A stretch of DNA of 64,000 nt from Clostridia bacterium (GTDB lineage: Bacteria > Bacillota > Clostridia > Oscillospirales > CAG-382). Shown piece after piece: positions 14,638-60,368 of the stretch. Position 1 is the first letter of the stretch, and each line of letters begins with the position of its first letter. The notes below the pieces were generated by a model. The model saw nothing but the letters and a program-made list of their open reading frames with translations. It made no database searches and had not been told where the DNA came from. The DNA lies in assembly GCA_017620655.1 (NCBI GenBank), contig JAGAUT010000034.1, forward strand, positions 68,844 through 132,843, written 5' to 3'. Position numbers and translations under genes: made by a program.

Positions 14638-14703
14638 ATATTTCACCTGTCAAATCAATTTTGAGGAAAGCCTGAGGCTTTCAACCATAATTCTGCGTTC
14701 CGC

Positions 14704-15840
14704 CTATATAACCGGTCCCTTTGCAAGCGAGAAGGGATGTGTCTCATGACCCGAAAGGTTTCTGCCGTCCTTGATAACAACGTTCTTATCTGCAATTACA
14801 CAGTTGAGATTTACGTCCTTACCGACGGTGGAATCCTGCATGATAATACAGTTCTTGATAACCGTACCCTTGCCAACGTGAACGCCTCTGAACAGGATGG
14901 AATTCTCAACTACGCCTTCAATCACACAGCCATCAGCGATAAGAGAATTCTTGACAGACGCACCCTCCATATACTTTGCGGGTGCAGAGTTCTTGACCTT
15001 TGTATAAACAGGTCTTGACTTTACGCCGAAGACACAGTCTCTTACCTCTGCGCTGAGCAAATCCATGCTGCTCTTGAAGTAGCCGTCAAGGGTGTTGATT
15101 GTTGCAAAATAGCCGGCATACTCATACTTCATGAACTTCATGTTATCCTTGTTCGCCGCAATGATATCCTTTGTAAAGCTCTTATAGCCGCGGGAAAGGG
15201 TATCAATGATAATTCTGTTGAGGTATTCACGTCTCAGAACAAAAATATTAAGGCAGACATCGAGCATGCCTTCCATAGAGGCAGGATTATCAACAAGATT
15301 TGTAACTCTGCCGTTATCATCAGATTCAACGATTGTACAGTTCTTTGCGTTTTCCTTTGTCATGTATACATTCTTTGTGACAAGAGTGATATCCGCACCG
15401 TTGTCAACATGGAACTTTATAACATCCTTGAGGTCAATATTGCATACGATATCGCAGTCGGAAAGAACTATGTATTCCTCTGTGCTCTTGGAAACAAAGT
15501 TATATGCATTCATGAGAGCATCAAGACGGGAGGAGAATACTGTCTTTGTACCGGCGTTGTCAAAGGTTGTAATCTGGGGAGGAAGAATTTTGAGACCGCC
15601 TGTGCTTCGAGCCAGATCCCAGTCCTTACCTGTGCCGAGGTGGTCAACAAGTGACTGATAGTTATAGTGTGTAATAATACCCACCTTTGTGATATTTGCA
15701 TTTACCATATTGGAAAGTGCAAAGTCAACAAGTCTGTATCTGCCGCCGAAGGGAACAGACGCCATGCTTCTCTTGCCCGTAAGCTCGGGGACATTTCTGT
15801 CATGAATATTTGAGAATATAAGTCCTGCTGCTGTAGCCAT
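14704..15840 (-). CDS. glgD: Glucose-1-phosphate adenylyltransferase regulatory subunit GlgD
   Basis: 378 aa, homologous in layout to GlgC but lacking its GGxGxRL motif. It follows glgC with a 1-nt stop/start overlap, as in Bacillus-type glgBCDAP operons. Confidence 0.85.
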   Translation of the reverse strand: MATAAGLIFSNIHDRNVPELTGKRSMASVPFGGRYRLVDFALSNMVNANITKVGIITHYNYQSLVDHLGTGKDWDLARSTGGLKILPPQITTFDNAGTKTVFSSRLDALMNAYNFVSKSTEEYIVLSDCDIVCNIDLKDVIKFHVDNGADITLVTKNVYMTKENAKNCTIVESDDNGRVTNLVDNPASMEGMLDVCLNIFVLRREYLNRIIIDTLSRGYKSFTKDIIAANKDNMKFMKYEYAGYFATINTLDGYFKSSMDLLSAEVRDCVFGVKSRPVYTKVKNSAPAKYMEGASVKNSLIADGCVIEGVVENSILFRGVHVGKGTVIKNCIIMQDSTVGKDVNLNCVIADKNVVIKDGRNLSGHETHPFSLAKGPVI

Positions 15841-56532: not shown

Positions 56533-57909
56533 ATGGCAGGCTTAAAGAAAAACGACAACCTTGAACTTCATGTTGAAATGCTTCTCGGCAACGGAAACGG
56601 TCTTTGCAGGCTGGACGACGGCTTTGTGGTATTCGTACCGTCCGCCGCACCGGGAGATGTTATAAAGGCACATGTAATCAAGGTGACAAAAAGCTATGCC
56701 GTCGCAAAAATACTCGAAATAATACAGCCGTCACCATACCGAAATGAGGACGGCTGTCCTTTTTCAAAGAGTTGCGGCGGATGCACATTCCAACACATCA
56801 GCTATGAAAAAGAATGCGAGTTCAAGGAAAATACGGTAAACGATGCCCTGGAAAGAATAGGAAAGCTGAGTCTTCGTGTAGAAAAGTTCTACGGTGCAGA
56901 GAACGTCTGCTCATACAGAAACAAAGCTGTCTATCCCGTAGGAGTAAATAAAGACGGTAAGGCAATCTCGGGCTTTTATGCACCTATGTCACACAGGATT
57001 GCAGAGCATGACAAATGTATGATTTCAAACCCGGAATTTGCAAAAATACGTGACTGTGTAATTGAATTTATAAACGCAAGGGGCATTTCCGTTTACAACG
57101 AGGAAAACGGCAAGGGTCTTGTCAGAAGCATACATTTAAGAAGCGTAAAATCAGGTAACGTTTCACTGTCGCTTATTCTTAACGGCGACGCTCTTTTGTC
57201 AAAGGCGACAGAGGATGCCTTTGTAAAGGAAATTACTAAAAGCTTCCCATTCATAAAGACAATTCTTATAAATGTAAACACAAAAAACACAAATGTAATC
57301 CTAGGCAACAGCTGGAGAACACTTTACGGAGACGGTTTTATTTACGATGAGCTTCTCGGAAGACGCTTCCGCATTACCCCCGCTTCCTTCTGGCAGGTTA
57401 ACAGAGAGCAGGCAGAGGTTTTATACTCTGTGGCAAAGGAATATGCCGACATCAAGGAAGGCGAAAGCCTTGTCGACCTCTACTGCGGCACGGGTTCCGT
57501 GGGTCTTTGTCTTGCAGATAAAGGCACAAGGCTTTACGGTGTGGAGGTTGTTGAAGAAGCAGCAAAGGATGCACAGTTCAACGCCAACCTCAACGGCATT
57601 GACGGCAAGTTTATTGCCATCGAAACGGAAAACGCCCTTGACGACGAATATGTAAAGAATCTCCACCCTGACGTTATTACCGTTGACCCGCCACGAAAAG
57701 GCTGTGTAGGTGCGGTTGAGAAAATTGCAGCTTTGGGAGCAAAGCGAATCGTTTACATCTCCTGTGACCCTGCAACGCTTGCAAGGGATCTTAATGAGTT
57801 TGAGACGCTTGGGTATAAGGCAGTAAGGGCTAGTGCTGTTGATATGTTCCCGAGGACGGGGCATGTTGAATCCGTTGTTCTTTTAGAACAAGCGGATTCA
57901 GCGATATAA
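56533..57909 (+). CDS. rlmD: 23S rRNA (uracil-5-)-methyltransferase (RlmD/RumA family)
   Basis: A TRAM domain, the Fe-S cysteines CPFSKSCGGC, the SAM motif VDLYCGTGS and the catalytic region ISCDPATLARD. The last ~16 codons appear to be supplied by an inserted element (see findings). Confidence 0.85.
   Translation: MAGLKKNDNLELHVEMLLGNGNGLCRLDDGFVVFVPSAAPGDVIKAHVIKVTKSYAVAKILEIIQPSPYRNEDGCPFSKSCGGCTFQHISYEKECEFKENTVNDALERIGKLSLRVEKFYGAENVCSYRNKAVYPVGVNKDGKAISGFYAPMSHRIAEHDKCMISNPEFAKIRDCVIEFINARGISVYNEENGKGLVRSIHLRSVKSGNVSLSLILNGDALLSKATEDAFVKEITKSFPFIKTILINVNTKNTNVILGNSWRTLYGDGFIYDELLGRRFRITPASFWQVNREQAEVLYSVAKEYADIKEGESLVDLYCGTGSVGLCLADKGTRLYGVEVVEEAAKDAQFNANLNGIDGKFIAIETENALDDEYVKNLHPDVITVDPPRKGCVGAVEKIAALGAKRIVYISCDPATLARDLNEFETLGYKAVRASAVDMFPRTGHVESVVLLEQADSAI
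57862..57890 (+). repeat. Left copy of a 29-nt imperfect direct repeat (rlmD 3' codons HVESVVLLE)
   Basis: catgttgaaTCCgtTgtTcttttagaaca here versus catgttgaaAGTgtCgtGcttttagaaca at 59418-59446. 24 of 29 positions are identical, and every difference is synonymous. Confidence 0.8.
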
Positions 57910-58083
57910 ATTCCTGCCGGAATTTGCGATATACACCGTTGGCGTGCGATATACCTACGGTGCGATATGTCCCTTCGGGACGTGAAAAGGAATTTATATC
58001 ATATCGCAGTCGAACGAATGTGAGACTATATCGCATTTTGTCGAAGTCAAAATATATCGCACGAGCAAGGCGAGTATATCGCA
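57900..58083. repeat. Array of eight TGCGATAT(A/G) motifs, four direct then four inverted
   Basis: Forward copies are at 57901 (the preceding base is A instead of T, and it overlaps the rlmD stop), 57925, 57945 and 57961. Reverse-complement copies are at 58000-58008, 58027-58035, 58053-58061 and 58075-58083. A small hairpin gtccc-ttc-gggac sits at the centre (57969-57981). Confidence 0.85.
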
Positions 58084-58096
58084 AAAGGAGTAAACC

Positions 58097-58447
58097 ATGG
58101 AGAATAAAACAATCAAGGAATTAGCTATAGAACTCACAGTTGAAACAACTGCTATTTGTGATAGTATAAAAGGACGTACCGTTTTTACGAACCAATTACT
58201 TCGTTCTTGTTCATCAATTGGTGCTAACACACATGAAGCAAAATATGCTCAAAGCACTCCTGATTTCATAAGCAAGTTAGAAATTGCACTAAAAGAATGT
58301 TACGAAACAGAATATTGGCTTGAAGTTCTTTTCAAAGTGAATTCTATTGATGAAACTACATATAAACATTTAATTAACGAATGTGGAACAATAAGAAGAA
58401 AGCTCATTGCTTCTATAACTACAACAAAGAAAAAAAGGAATGTCTAA
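58097..58447 (+). CDS. Four-helix-bundle protein (23S rRNA intervening-sequence protein / Avd-like family)
   Basis: 116 aa. The block LLRSCSSIGANTHEAKYAQSTPDFISKLEIALKECYETEYWLEVL is the typical signature of this family. The RBS is AAAGGAG. Confidence 0.8.
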   Translation: MENKTIKELAIELTVETTAICDSIKGRTVFTNQLLRSCSSIGANTHEAKYAQSTPDFISKLEIALKECYETEYWLEVLFKVNSIDETTYKHLINECGTIRRKLIASITTTKKKRNV

Positions 58448-59048
58448 TATGAAATACACTGATGTTTTTAAAATGCCAAAGGCAACAACAATAATGGCAA
58501 GAACATCTAGTATAACAAATTCTTTTGTGAACGGAATAATACCTTGTATTGCTCCAGCAGAAGAAGAAATAAAAAGAGTTCTTAACATTTTAGATATGGA
58601 CAAGGATAATGTCAAATGCTCTTATTGTGGTGATAAATGTACTGAATGGGATCATTTTAGACCGCTTGTAAGAAACAAGCGACCAACAGGGTATATTTCT
58701 GAGATAAATAATCTTGTTCCCGCTTGTGGTAAATGCAATCAATCAAAAGGTAATAAATATTGGAAAGATTGGATATTAAGCGACGCACAACTTTCACCAA
58801 AAACTAGAAATATTCCTAATCTTGATATAATAATAGAAAAATTAGAAAATTTAGAGAGGCAAACAAAGCCTATAAAAATAGATTTTGAAATTATTATTGG
58901 TCATGAACTTTGGGAAAAGCACTGGGATAATTGTATTAAATTACATAATCAAATGCGAGAATGTCAAATAGTTTCAGAACAAATCAGAGAGATAATTAAC
59001 GAATCATTGAACGAAGAAAAAAGTTCAAAATACACTAACATTACATAG
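58440..59048 (+). CDS. HNH endonuclease
   Basis: CSYCG...EWDHFRPL...NLVPACGKCNQSKGNK is an HNH/Cys-box motif. It overlaps the upstream gene by 8 nt. Confidence 0.8.
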   Translation: MSNMKYTDVFKMPKATTIMARTSSITNSFVNGIIPCIAPAEEEIKRVLNILDMDKDNVKCSYCGDKCTEWDHFRPLVRNKRPTGYISEINNLVPACGKCNQSKGNKYWKDWILSDAQLSPKTRNIPNLDIIIEKLENLERQTKPIKIDFEIIIGHELWEKHWDNCIKLHNQMRECQIVSEQIREIINESLNEEKSSKYTNIT

Positions 59049-59105
59049 CGATAACTGTACTAACATCTTAAAAGAGAAAAAAGTTGGTATAATAGTTCAA
59101 AATGA

Positions 59106-59393
59106 TTTAAAAAACTTCTCGAATCAAATATTTTATCAGAATGCATAATTGAGAAACTCCAAGAGCAAGAATATTGCAAAAGTATTTTTGATATAAACTT
59201 TGCGGTTTTATCAAAACTACAAAATGGAACAAATATATCTGAACAGCGAAAAGACCTTTTAGTTCGTGATAGATATTATGCTACACCTATAACAATAAAT
59301 GACGAAAAGTATTTTTCGTCTTCTCAATGGTATGATAGGAACAAACAAAAACTAATTAACTTTCTAACAAAACACAACTCAGAAACTATGTGA
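59106..59393 (+). pseudogene. Start-less 95-codon open frame, probably the C-terminal remnant of a larger gene
   Basis: The frame is open from 59106 to the TGA at 59391-59393 with no ATG/GTG/TTG near its start. The translation is ...SECIIEKLQEQEYCKSIFDINFAVLSKLQNGTNISEQRKDLLVRDRYYATPITINDEKYFSSSQWYDRNKQKLINFLTKHNSETM. Confidence 0.4.
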
Positions 59394-59402
59394 TACTGTG
59401 GC

Positions 59403-59462
59403 ATACCCCACACAACACATGTTGAAAGTGTCGTGCTTTTAGAACATCGCACAACCCCTTGA
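59403..59462 (+). pseudogene. Displaced relic of an rlmD 3' end (IPHTTHVESVVLLEHRTTP*)
   Basis: It aligns codon for codon with FPRTGHVESVVLLEQADSAI* at 57847-57909. It contains the right copy of the direct repeat (59418-59446) and has no upstream coding continuity. Confidence 0.7.
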
Positions 59463-59487
59463 TTTTTCAAACACACAGTGCTATAAT
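59459..59487 (+). promoter_or_regulatory. coaX promoter with an extended -10
   Basis: TTGATT (59459-59464), 17-nt spacer, TGcTATAAT (59479-59487). Confidence 0.55.
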
Positions 59488-59518
59488 ATGCCCATATAAC
59501 ATGAAAGGAGCGATTGCT

Positions 59519-60283
59519 TTGACACTCTGTATCGACATAGGCAATTCAAACATAGTCTTTGGCGGCTTTGAAGACGAAAAGCTGTCATTTGTGGCAAGGA
59601 TTTCCACAAATACAGCCAAAACGGAGGACGAATATGCCGTTACAATTTTGGATGTGCTGTCGCTCCGTAATGTTGACAAGGAATCAATCAATGGATGTAT
59701 TATTTCATCGGTTGTTCCTCCCCTTAACTCGGTTATTAAAAATGCCGTAAAATCCGCCTTCGGCATCGACTCACTTGTTGTGGGTCCCGGTATCAAGACG
59801 GGTCTCGGTATTCATTGCGACAATCCCTCATCGGTGGGCTCGGACATCATCTGCGCCTGCGTTGCAGCAAACAAGCTCTACGGCAGTCCCTGTCTTGTTA
59901 TCGACATGGGCACGGCAACAAAAATGTCAGTCATTGACAAATCGGGCACATTTATCGGCGTTTCCATTATCCCCGGTGTTATCATGGGCATGAAGGCTTT
60001 ATCCGAGGGAACGGCACAGCTTCCGCAGATAAGCCTGGAAGCCCCAAAGGCACTTATCGGCAAAAACACCGCCGACAGCATGAAGTCGGGTATCGTTTTC
60101 GGAAACGCTTCCATGATTGACGGCATGATTGACAGATTCTGCGAAGAAACAAAAGAGGCTCTCAAGGTTATTGCAACGGGCGGTGTTTGCGAAACAATAA
60201 CCGGTTTTTGCAAGCACGGCATTATGGTTGACGAGCATCTTGTTCTCAAGGGACTTGACATTATATACAAAAAGAACAAATAA
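59519..60283 (+). CDS. coaX: Type III pantothenate kinase
   Basis: LTLCIDIGNSNIVFG at the N-terminus is the CoaX/ASKHA signature, along with LVIDMGTATK and ATGG. I prefer the TTG at 59519, which has an AAAGGAG RBS 8 nt upstream. An in-frame ATG at 59501 is the alternative. Confidence 0.85.
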   Translation: MTLCIDIGNSNIVFGGFEDEKLSFVARISTNTAKTEDEYAVTILDVLSLRNVDKESINGCIISSVVPPLNSVIKNAVKSAFGIDSLVVGPGIKTGLGIHCDNPSSVGSDIICACVAANKLYGSPCLVIDMGTATKMSVIDKSGTFIGVSIIPGVIMGMKALSEGTAQLPQISLEAPKALIGKNTADSMKSGIVFGNASMIDGMIDRFCEETKEALKVIATGGVCETITGFCKHGIMVDEHLVLKGLDIIYKKNK

Positions 60284-60368
60284 GAATGTGTATATTGCCC
60301 TTTAGGGGTTTATATAAAATTTATGCGTTGTACCTCGTTGGTGAGGACGACAGCAAGGAGGAATTCTC

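Follow-up and report, generated by a model that had tools for sequence, protein, structure and literature searches.

A probable integrase-less, att-flanked insert at the 3' end of rlmD in an uncultured gut Oscillospiraceae bacterium

In a 64,000-nucleotide stretch of DNA (hereafter the window; contig JAGAUT010000034.1 of assembly GCA_017620655.1) from an uncultured Oscillospiraceae bacterium of the animal gut, the end of rlmD, which encodes a rumA-type 23S rRNA 5-methyluridine (m5U) methyltransferase, is found twice: once at the gene itself and once beyond an islet of ~1.5 kb, beside the promoter of coaX. How does a gene come to have two diverged 3' ends? An initial annotation had proposed that an element inserted into the 3' end of rlmD, bringing its own replacement terminus, and that the displaced end survives downstream. 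Both parts of this proposal were borne out, by a junction in a conspecific metagenome contig and by fusions of recombinase genes to rlmD-type tails. We consider it quite probable that the two copies are the attL and attR sites of a large serine recombinase (LSR) system targeting the 3' end of rlmD/rumA, and that the islet between them is an integrase-less remnant, most likely left after internal deletion of a larger element, i.e. a decayed element or one resembling a cis-mobilizable element (CIME).

The rlmD gene (56533..57909, forward strand, as are all features below) encodes 458 aa with a PF05958 domain (Pfam, E 4.7e-20) and a TRAM domain, and orthologues at 85% identity are present in the genus. 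The protein ends in ...FPRTGHVESVVLLEQADSAI, with the stop at 57909, in agreement with the annotated coordinates and sequences. A repeat search and local alignment identified 57862..57890 and 59418..59446 as the longest direct repeat of the region, 29 nt in length with 24/29 matching (83% identity). When the rlmD end was aligned locally with the 6 kb downstream, the score was 19, a value reached by 0/200 shuffled queries, whose 95th percentile was 13; the downstream similarity noted initially is thus statistically significant. The five differences (TCC/AGT, GTT/GTC and GTT/GTG) are indeed all synonymous, and HVESVVLLE is encoded by both copies. The left copy, the attL core (CATGTTGA/ATCCGTTGTTCTTTTAGAACA, the slash marking the putative crossover), has its GA dinucleotide at 57868-57869 and is also delimited by the contig junctions described below (L114, L149 and L151), while the right copy, the attR core (CATGTTGA/AAGTGTCGTGCTTTTAGAACA), has it at 59424-59425 and is built like the attR of intact elements. 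Read from this second GA, the displaced earlier tail of rlmD, (E)SVVLLEHRTTP and a stop (59424..59462), comprises 12 codons with the Glu codon counted (...ESVVLLEHRTTP, then the stop) and adjoins the coaX promoter, its TGA (59460-62) overlapping the -35 box. The orphan copy had initially been drawn from 59403, and here only the core stood: upstream of 59418 there is no significant likeness to the rlmD copy, and we rejected the stretch IPHTT (59403-59417) as a homologue of FPRTG, since it matches at 5/15 nt, the chance level. Codon comparison was likewise rejected as a means of telling which copy is native, the relatives having both TCC and AGT/AGC serine codons, and it is only its position beside the coaX promoter that designates the right copy as the native rlmD tail.

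The site of crossover was approached through conspecific metagenome contigs, found by exact-protein look-ups with CoaX, the four-helix-bundle (4HB) protein of the islet, the upstream rotamase and the energy-coupling factor (ECF) S-component; most of these contigs are arranged like the window. One such contig, L114, is 99.96% identical to window 57865-60344 and diverges upstream of 57865-57868. Upstream of the junction lies the gene for a 563-aa LSR (PF00239, PF07508 and PF13408; CcrB-like by NCBIfam), which is fused in frame, as ...ETETTV followed by ESVVLLEQADSAI and the stop, into the same tail, hairpin and array as in the window. The L114 element also carries primase genes, a Mob_Pre relaxase gene and a gene for a 76-aa helix-turn-helix-like protein; look-ups with the LSR and the 76-aa protein reached no rlmD 5' junction at its left end. 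In other contigs, the same element, its 76-aa protein identical, is fused, after ETETTV and the shared E, to six other rlmD-type tails, one of which (L169) is followed by another hairpin, array and 4HB cassette, of the GTGAAGT class. Two contigs from other samples, L149 and L151, stop exactly at ...CATGTTGA, i.e. at window 57869, the behaviour expected of an assembler at a strain polymorphism. L114, L149 and L151 stem from samples that include ERZ28654447, ERZ28654464 and SRR12529193. Together, the L114 junction and the contig breaks point to a crossover within the Glu codon, at its GA (57868-69), which lies six bases into the left repeat. The left site thus appears to be still a competent target, a mobilizable element having integrated in it in another strain, and L114 has a tandem of mobilizable element and islet, as accretion by an incoming element would give.

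The same arrangement is met elsewhere among the 401 genomes of the order that were compared. The LSR homologues in the order mostly (11/13) end in a VE[TS].. rlmD-type tail. In six genomes (G153, G169, G120, G222, G270 and G313), the LSR gene is preceded, at a distance of 10-19 kb and on the same strand, by rlmD, and RlmD has a ~95-aa tail that is encoded by the left end of the element. Where both junctions were read (G153, G169 and G313), the imperfect repeat common to attL and attR is ~27 nt long, begins with the Val codon and on both sides encodes VETV(V/A)LLS, its differences falling mostly at third positions, a pattern as in the window. The view that the two copies are diverged gene ends, as opposed to a target-site duplication, holds. 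The genome of the window itself has no rlmD-targeting LSR: two other genes with LSR domains are present, but they show only 21-24% identity and do not have VE[ST]V tails. In addition, many 'long' RlmD proteins (~545-595 aa) were seen to have a ~95-aa C-terminal extension, ...IEVELxLDELDLTxAExKATYxEIKxYV...ALKHFxMI before the stop, that comes from the left end of a serine-recombinase element integrated there (L030 in G007, L036 in G020, L028 in G012, and L141-L146), and G009 has a frameshifted remnant of the ~95-aa tail behind rlmD. For annotation, this means that in Clostridia the C-termini of RlmD, and RlmD proteins that seem "extended", are often chimeric, with sequence from mobile elements.

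A model of the locus can be built that takes as observed the repeat, the L114 junction, the LSR genes fused to rlmD-type tails and the truncated gene described below. The LSR would target the GA dinucleotide in the Glu codon of a conserved H-V-E motif. The ancestral rlmD would have ended in ...HVESVVLLEHRTTP and a stop, directly abutting the coaX promoter, and the element would have integrated at its GA. Integration would swap the 3' ends, such that RlmD gains an element tail of 13 codons, whose sequence is predicted to form a hairpin and whose end falls within the first heptamer of a Gut-1-type array, while the previous tail, ESVVLLEHRTTP and a stop, is moved to the far end of the insert, beside the coaX promoter. 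The reading frame of RlmD does cross the GA into ESVVLLEQADSAI and its stop codon. In this scheme, attL would consist of B-left (...GGGGCATGTTGA) and P-right (ATCCGTTG..., then the hairpin, the array and the 4HB gene), and attR of P-left (...ACACAACACATGTTGA) and B-right (AAGTGTCG...CCCCTTGA); the empty attB would read ...GGGGCATGTTGA/AAGTGTCGTGC... and the circle junction attP ...ACACAACACATGTTGA/ATCCGTTGTTC.... The rlmD codons from 57870 onward would then be element-encoded, and the IPHTT stretch would be part of P-left, outside the old gene end. Selection on P-right would have been twofold, for a tail that RlmD can accept and for the hairpin, and B-right would have been a working gene end until displaced, which would explain why the divergence between the two is synonymous only.

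The hairpin in question, hp0 (GAATCCGTTGTTC-TTTTA-GAACAAGCGGATTC, 57868..57899), was identified by folding and by homologous hairpins, and is built from the replacement tail codons ESVVLLEQADS. Its predicted fold energy is -22.3 kcal/mol, compared with -5.0 for the right copy, and all five synonymous differences lie within its 5' arm, where they enable pairing with the sequence to the right. G004 and L169 have homologous hairpins, with compensatory changes. In the array that follows (57901..58090; recognised by Rfam RF01706, fold and alignment), the heptamer is present four times forward, as GCGATAT(A/G), and four times inverted, as (C/T)ATATCGC, with mini-hairpins between the copies; the first heptamer includes the stop codon of rlmD, and directly after the last comes the Shine-Dalgarno sequence of the 4HB gene. 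The RF01706 match at 57924-57993 scores 37.7 bits (E 3e-5), which is under the gathering score of 50. The fold of the array has a z-score of -4.2, and its alignment with G003 and G004 reveals compensatory changes.

The stretch between the repeats contains, in addition to the array, the 4HB gene, an HNH gene and a truncated gene. The 4HB gene (58097..58447, 116 aa) belongs to the 23S rRNA intervening-sequence (IVS) protein/TIGR02436 family, and its product scores above the curated cut-offs of both PF05635 (E 2.9e-22; 79.3 bits, cut-off 33.8) and TIGR02436 (E 7.7e-26; 90.5 bits, cut-off 24). The HNH endonuclease gene (58449..59048, 199 aa, or 202 aa from a start at 58440; PF01844, E 3.8e-7) begins 2 nt past the 4HB stop codon and is called as 199 aa in the conspecific contigs. 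Its product has an intact HNH motif and weak PADLOC matches to the defence-type nucleases PDC-M01B and PtuB, and there was a single weak match to it in the 400 other genomes of the order (27% identity, E 4.5e-6). The truncated gene, a remnant of 95 codons with no start codon (59106..59393, seen in translation), ends 24 nt short of the right repeat. Its translation matches, at 33% identity (E 2e-8), the C-terminus of a hypothetical protein of 412 aa encoded next to a Sau3AI-family enzyme gene on a Bacillus mycoides plasmid, and gave no Pfam, NCBIfam or PADLOC family and no phage match. The G+C content is 0.318 for 57910-59402 and 0.30 for 58097-59402, as compared to 0.454 for rlmD, 0.467 for coaX and 0.434 for the whole window, so that the AT-richness first judged by eye is confirmed by computation. 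The islet contains no mobilisation or conjugation module, and the open reading frames and Pfam profiles of the window revealed no recombinase gene within 57910-59417, as the initial annotation had said of integrases; the islet is therefore an integrase-less, att-flanked insert. A GA-centred att site of rumA/rlmD-targeting LSRs would explain why the integrase is missing. The truncated gene shows that the islet has probably decayed, and together with the lack of a recombinase gene and of a cognate LSR in the genome it led us to read the islet as a deletion remnant. Of the two mechanisms suggested initially, decay of an element thus fits, whereas homing driven by the HNH nuclease is not supported, as discussed below.

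Was the islet present in the ancestor of the genus? The closest genomes, G005, G008 and G010 (RlmD 84-85% identical), keep the order rlmD...coaX, with a lipoprotein gene, a membrane protein gene, or an HNH-type gene and a membrane protein gene between the two, and have neither array nor orphan tail there, so the islet was not inherited from the ancestor of the genus. The near-unique HNH gene, and a 4HB protein that is 75-82% identical to those of other families versus 63% to that of the congeneric G003, indicate that the islet arrived horizontally. The islet is missing from these three genomes, but no strictly empty rlmD-coaX site was found. A degenerate ...GHVESVVLLEH pattern gave 0 matches in the genome contig collection, and the reconstructed empty junction (...CATGTTGAAAGTGTCG...) gave 0 matches in metagenome contigs; these scans are uninformative, because the orphan control also gave 0 and the species is therefore absent from that collection. 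The type III pantothenate kinase gene coaX (coding sequence 59519-60283; PF03309, E 3.5e-63; 59459..60283 with its promoter) has a promoter (-35 TTGATT at 59459-64, -10 TATAAT at 59482-87) that is alignable with, and conserved in, the three relatives. In all four genomes, the sequence upstream of coaX runs into a conserved (C)TTGATTT that holds the -35 box, and the lipoprotein and membrane protein reading frames of the relatives appear to stop at the same TGA. In G008 (contig C13, L023), a protein of ~290 aa, with an HNH motif at its C-terminal end, begins within the stop region of rlmD, and its relatives lie behind the 4HB gene at rlmD in two other families (L107 in G303 and L108 in G168); nuclease-type cargo therefore recurs at this hot spot.

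The cassette type was also sought elsewhere, and array and 4HB gene recur at rlmD ends in several families, where ~13 of the ~32 4HB loci examined are located. In the sequences inspected, the rlmD stop codon lies within the first heptamer. A significant orphan rlmD tail was found in four other genomes with a 4HB cassette behind rlmD (G003, G147, G252 and G286), and is absent in relatives without the cassette. Minimal units of ~560 nt (hairpin, array and 4HB gene) lie between rlmD-end repeats in G003 and G147/G163, where the 4HB stop TGA supplies the GA core of the right repeat; in L031 (G003, 590-640) and L105/L106 (~900-950), the GA-to-GA unit is exactly hairpin, array and 4HB gene. The cassette of the window is single-copy in its own genome. 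Two further 4HB cassettes, L166 (G000:C40:~200-780) and L167 (G000:C44:~14700-15300), were noted there, one after tRNA genes, with an array of TATATCAT/ATGATATA, and the other between two genes of an apparent histidine-biosynthesis operon, flanked by inverted GCGGAAT/GCGGAGT heptamer runs that lack hairpin spacers, like an IVS stem.

Several points weigh against an att-flanked deletion remnant. No recombinase remnant adjoins attR: the 24 nt before it are not convincingly LSR-derived, and the likeness to an LSR C-terminus (ACA ACA versus ACA ACC) is too weak to claim. No intact LSR element was found to have an array and a 4HB gene at its left end; in the six that were examined, attL carries the ~95-aa tail instead. 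The GA crossover rests on sequence junctions and literature analogy, and L114 is a metagenome scaffold, though its junction recurs in seven contexts. Finally, no empty site or excised circle was seen, all retrieved conspecific contigs carrying the islet. We infer in what sequence the events took place, and that the recombinase went missing through deletion as opposed to mobilisation in trans. That the insert never had a recombinase, and that hairpin, array and 4HB units with or without cargo are cassettes specialised for the GA of rlmD and moved in trans, integron-like, by rumA-targeting LSRs, we regard as rather unlikely. The recurring minimal units whose TGA gives the GA, the share of 4HB loci at rlmD ends in different families, the placement of the rlmD stop in the first heptamer in the sequences inspected, and the two hosts (L114 and L169) in which a cassette of this kind directly follows the mobilizable element would all be expected of such cassettes. 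Yet neither a circular cassette nor an identical cassette at two different sites was seen, several rlmD-linked cassettes (G266, G240 and G363) have no detectable right repeat, the truncated gene in the window points to decay, and 4HB cassettes are present, too, at sites not known as targets of this LSR family, tRNA ends among them. In its general form, i.e. that the rlmD 3' end of gut Oscillospirales is an integron-like platform for recombinase-less, GA-bounded units moved in trans by rumA-targeting serine recombinases, the idea is one we entertain only tentatively. If true, the hairpin would be both an att half-site and part of a structured RNA leader, and the islet would be one such cassette with acquired cargo of the defence type.

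It is very unlikely, in our view, that the array and 4HB cassette, as a Gut-1-type element, inserts itself and duplicates a long (24-45 nt) hairpin-containing target, the repeat then being a diverged duplication. Canonical Gut-1 is indeed high-copy and breaks assemblies in 177/401 genomes, some cassettes away from rlmD lie between identical 30-nt copies of a terminator hairpin (L080 and L100), and in three loci (G003, G147 and G286) the repeat ends exactly at the array start. The left edge of the repeat, however, coincides in 4/5 loci with the LSR crossover, at the H/V codon; the TCC/AGT serine switch is unreachable from an identical duplicate by synonymous single steps; the right copy in the window lies 971 nt past the end of the 4HB gene, beyond unrelated cargo; and most tRNA-linked cassettes lack a flanking repeat. 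We give almost no credence to homing, in which the HNH endonuclease would carry the islet into empty rlmD alleles and the synonymous changes would shield the occupied allele from cleavage. An intact HNH motif in the window, and the different HNH-type gene directly behind rlmD in G008 with relatives after 4HB genes in G303 and G168, are compatible with homing. Against this, the nuclease has just the one match in the 400 other genomes of the order and resembles nucleases of the defence type, homing makes no flanking repeat, yet a repeat is present, and the hairpin already accounts for the synonymous changes.

With the integrase-less, att-flanked insert as the preferred reading, the closest known system is that of integrative and conjugative or mobilizable elements (ICEs and IMEs) with a single LSR at rumA (vanG elements; ICE-r of Streptococcus, Enterococcus and Roseburia; the ICE_rumA class of Ambroset et al., 2016; CTn5 in C. 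difficile 630 delta-erm). These insert at a GA ~11-12 codons from the rumA 3' end (PMC4120198, PMC4701971). Srinivasan et al. described right-end serine recombinase genes fused to rumA 3' codons, rumA fused to element tails, and tandem elements (PMC4120198), and Ambroset et al. (2016) reported a reciprocal exchange of 3' parts with direct repeats of 2-21 bp in rumA and the integrase gene (PMC4701971). The GA site, the in-frame element tail, the displaced codons at the far end of the insert, the short imperfect repeat and the tandem occupation of one site are common to both, as is, in the sister-strain L114 element, the fusion of displaced codons to a recombinase gene. In contrast, the insert of the window is only 1.5 kb long and has no recombinase, relaxase or conjugation genes; it lacks an LSR gene fused to the displaced codons, a feature found in L114 and 11/13 homologues; its tail consists of 13 hairpin codons followed by array and 4HB gene, compared with a left-end reading frame of 101-115 codons; and its host is an uncultured animal-gut Oscillospiraceae bacterium. 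The rumA/rlmD hot spot is already known in streptococci, enterococci and clostridia, and the window offers a clean natural example of it, with a stranded remnant, in uncultured gut Oscillospiraceae. The less ordinary aspect is that the replacement terminus is a hairpin formed by codons, with a Gut-1-type array and a 4HB gene behind it, an orphan array and a 23S-IVS-type gene thus being placed at the element-supplied side of an att site.

CIMEs and decayed ICEs (dICEs) are likewise att-flanked and without integrase or transfer genes. By analogy, the L114 structure may correspond to the tandem array that forms when an incoming element integrates at one att site of a CIME, with mobilisation in cis; the stranded insert would thus still offer an att site, in which the mobilizable element of the sister strain appears to have landed. 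Classic CIMEs were defined for ICEs with a tyrosine integrase, of the ICESt1/ICESt3 family. The term CIME is used in PMC6323972 and PMC7563491. With integron cassettes, the units at rlmD have in common that they are small, promoterless and of 1-2 genes, stand behind a fixed platform gene and are bounded by recombination sites that fold as hairpins; they differ in having a serine recombinase in place of the tyrosine recombinase IntI and sites derived from a gene end, and a cassette array and trans-capture would here be assumed by analogy. For a free-standing HNH homing cassette, one nuclease gene would be expected to turn up at one site in related genomes, as presence/absence alleles and lacking a flanking repeat; the nuclease of the islet has the one weak match in 400 other genomes, and the islet is flanked by a repeat.

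As in the Gut-1 RNA motif (Rfam RF01706; Weinberg et al., 2010, PMC2864571), an invariant heptamer alternates with variable hairpins in the array of the window; the canonical motif makes up the first third of a unit of ~190-270 nt whose second half is inverted. The array differs in its heptamer, GCGAUAU versus GUGAAAU, in its score under the gathering threshold, in being joined to the rlmD stop codon and in leading straight into a 4HB gene. In the order as a whole, Gut-1 Rfam matches were observed in 177/401 genomes, 132 of the 177 above threshold (L042-L071). The motif is high-copy, with at least 11 copies in many genomes, often at contig ends (many copies in G298, G194 and G355; e.g. G131:C8:113312-113388), and usually sits behind a tRNA or tmRNA 3' end and a terminator hairpin. 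The Rfam model spans only the first 77 nt of the unit, the second half of which carries the inverted heptamer ATTTCAC. Nearly all PF05635 genes (L073-L101; loci from 181/401 genomes) have such an array upstream, and the forward and inverted heptamers switch jointly between classes (GCGATAT, TCGATAT, GTGATAT, GTGAAAT, GTGAAGT, GTGATATT and ATGATAT), which the sequence identity of the 4HB proteins follows. The GTGAAAT class has its own TGnTATAAT promoter between array and 4HB gene. Canonical Gut-1 copies (L047, G071:C57; L042, G131:C8) have as neighbours duplicated tRNA 3' ends (GAGTCCTTTCGCCCCTGCCA twice, at a spacing of ~130 nt) and a tRNA-like gene interrupted by an insert of ~150 nt, which suggests that other small elements may replace tRNA 3' ends.

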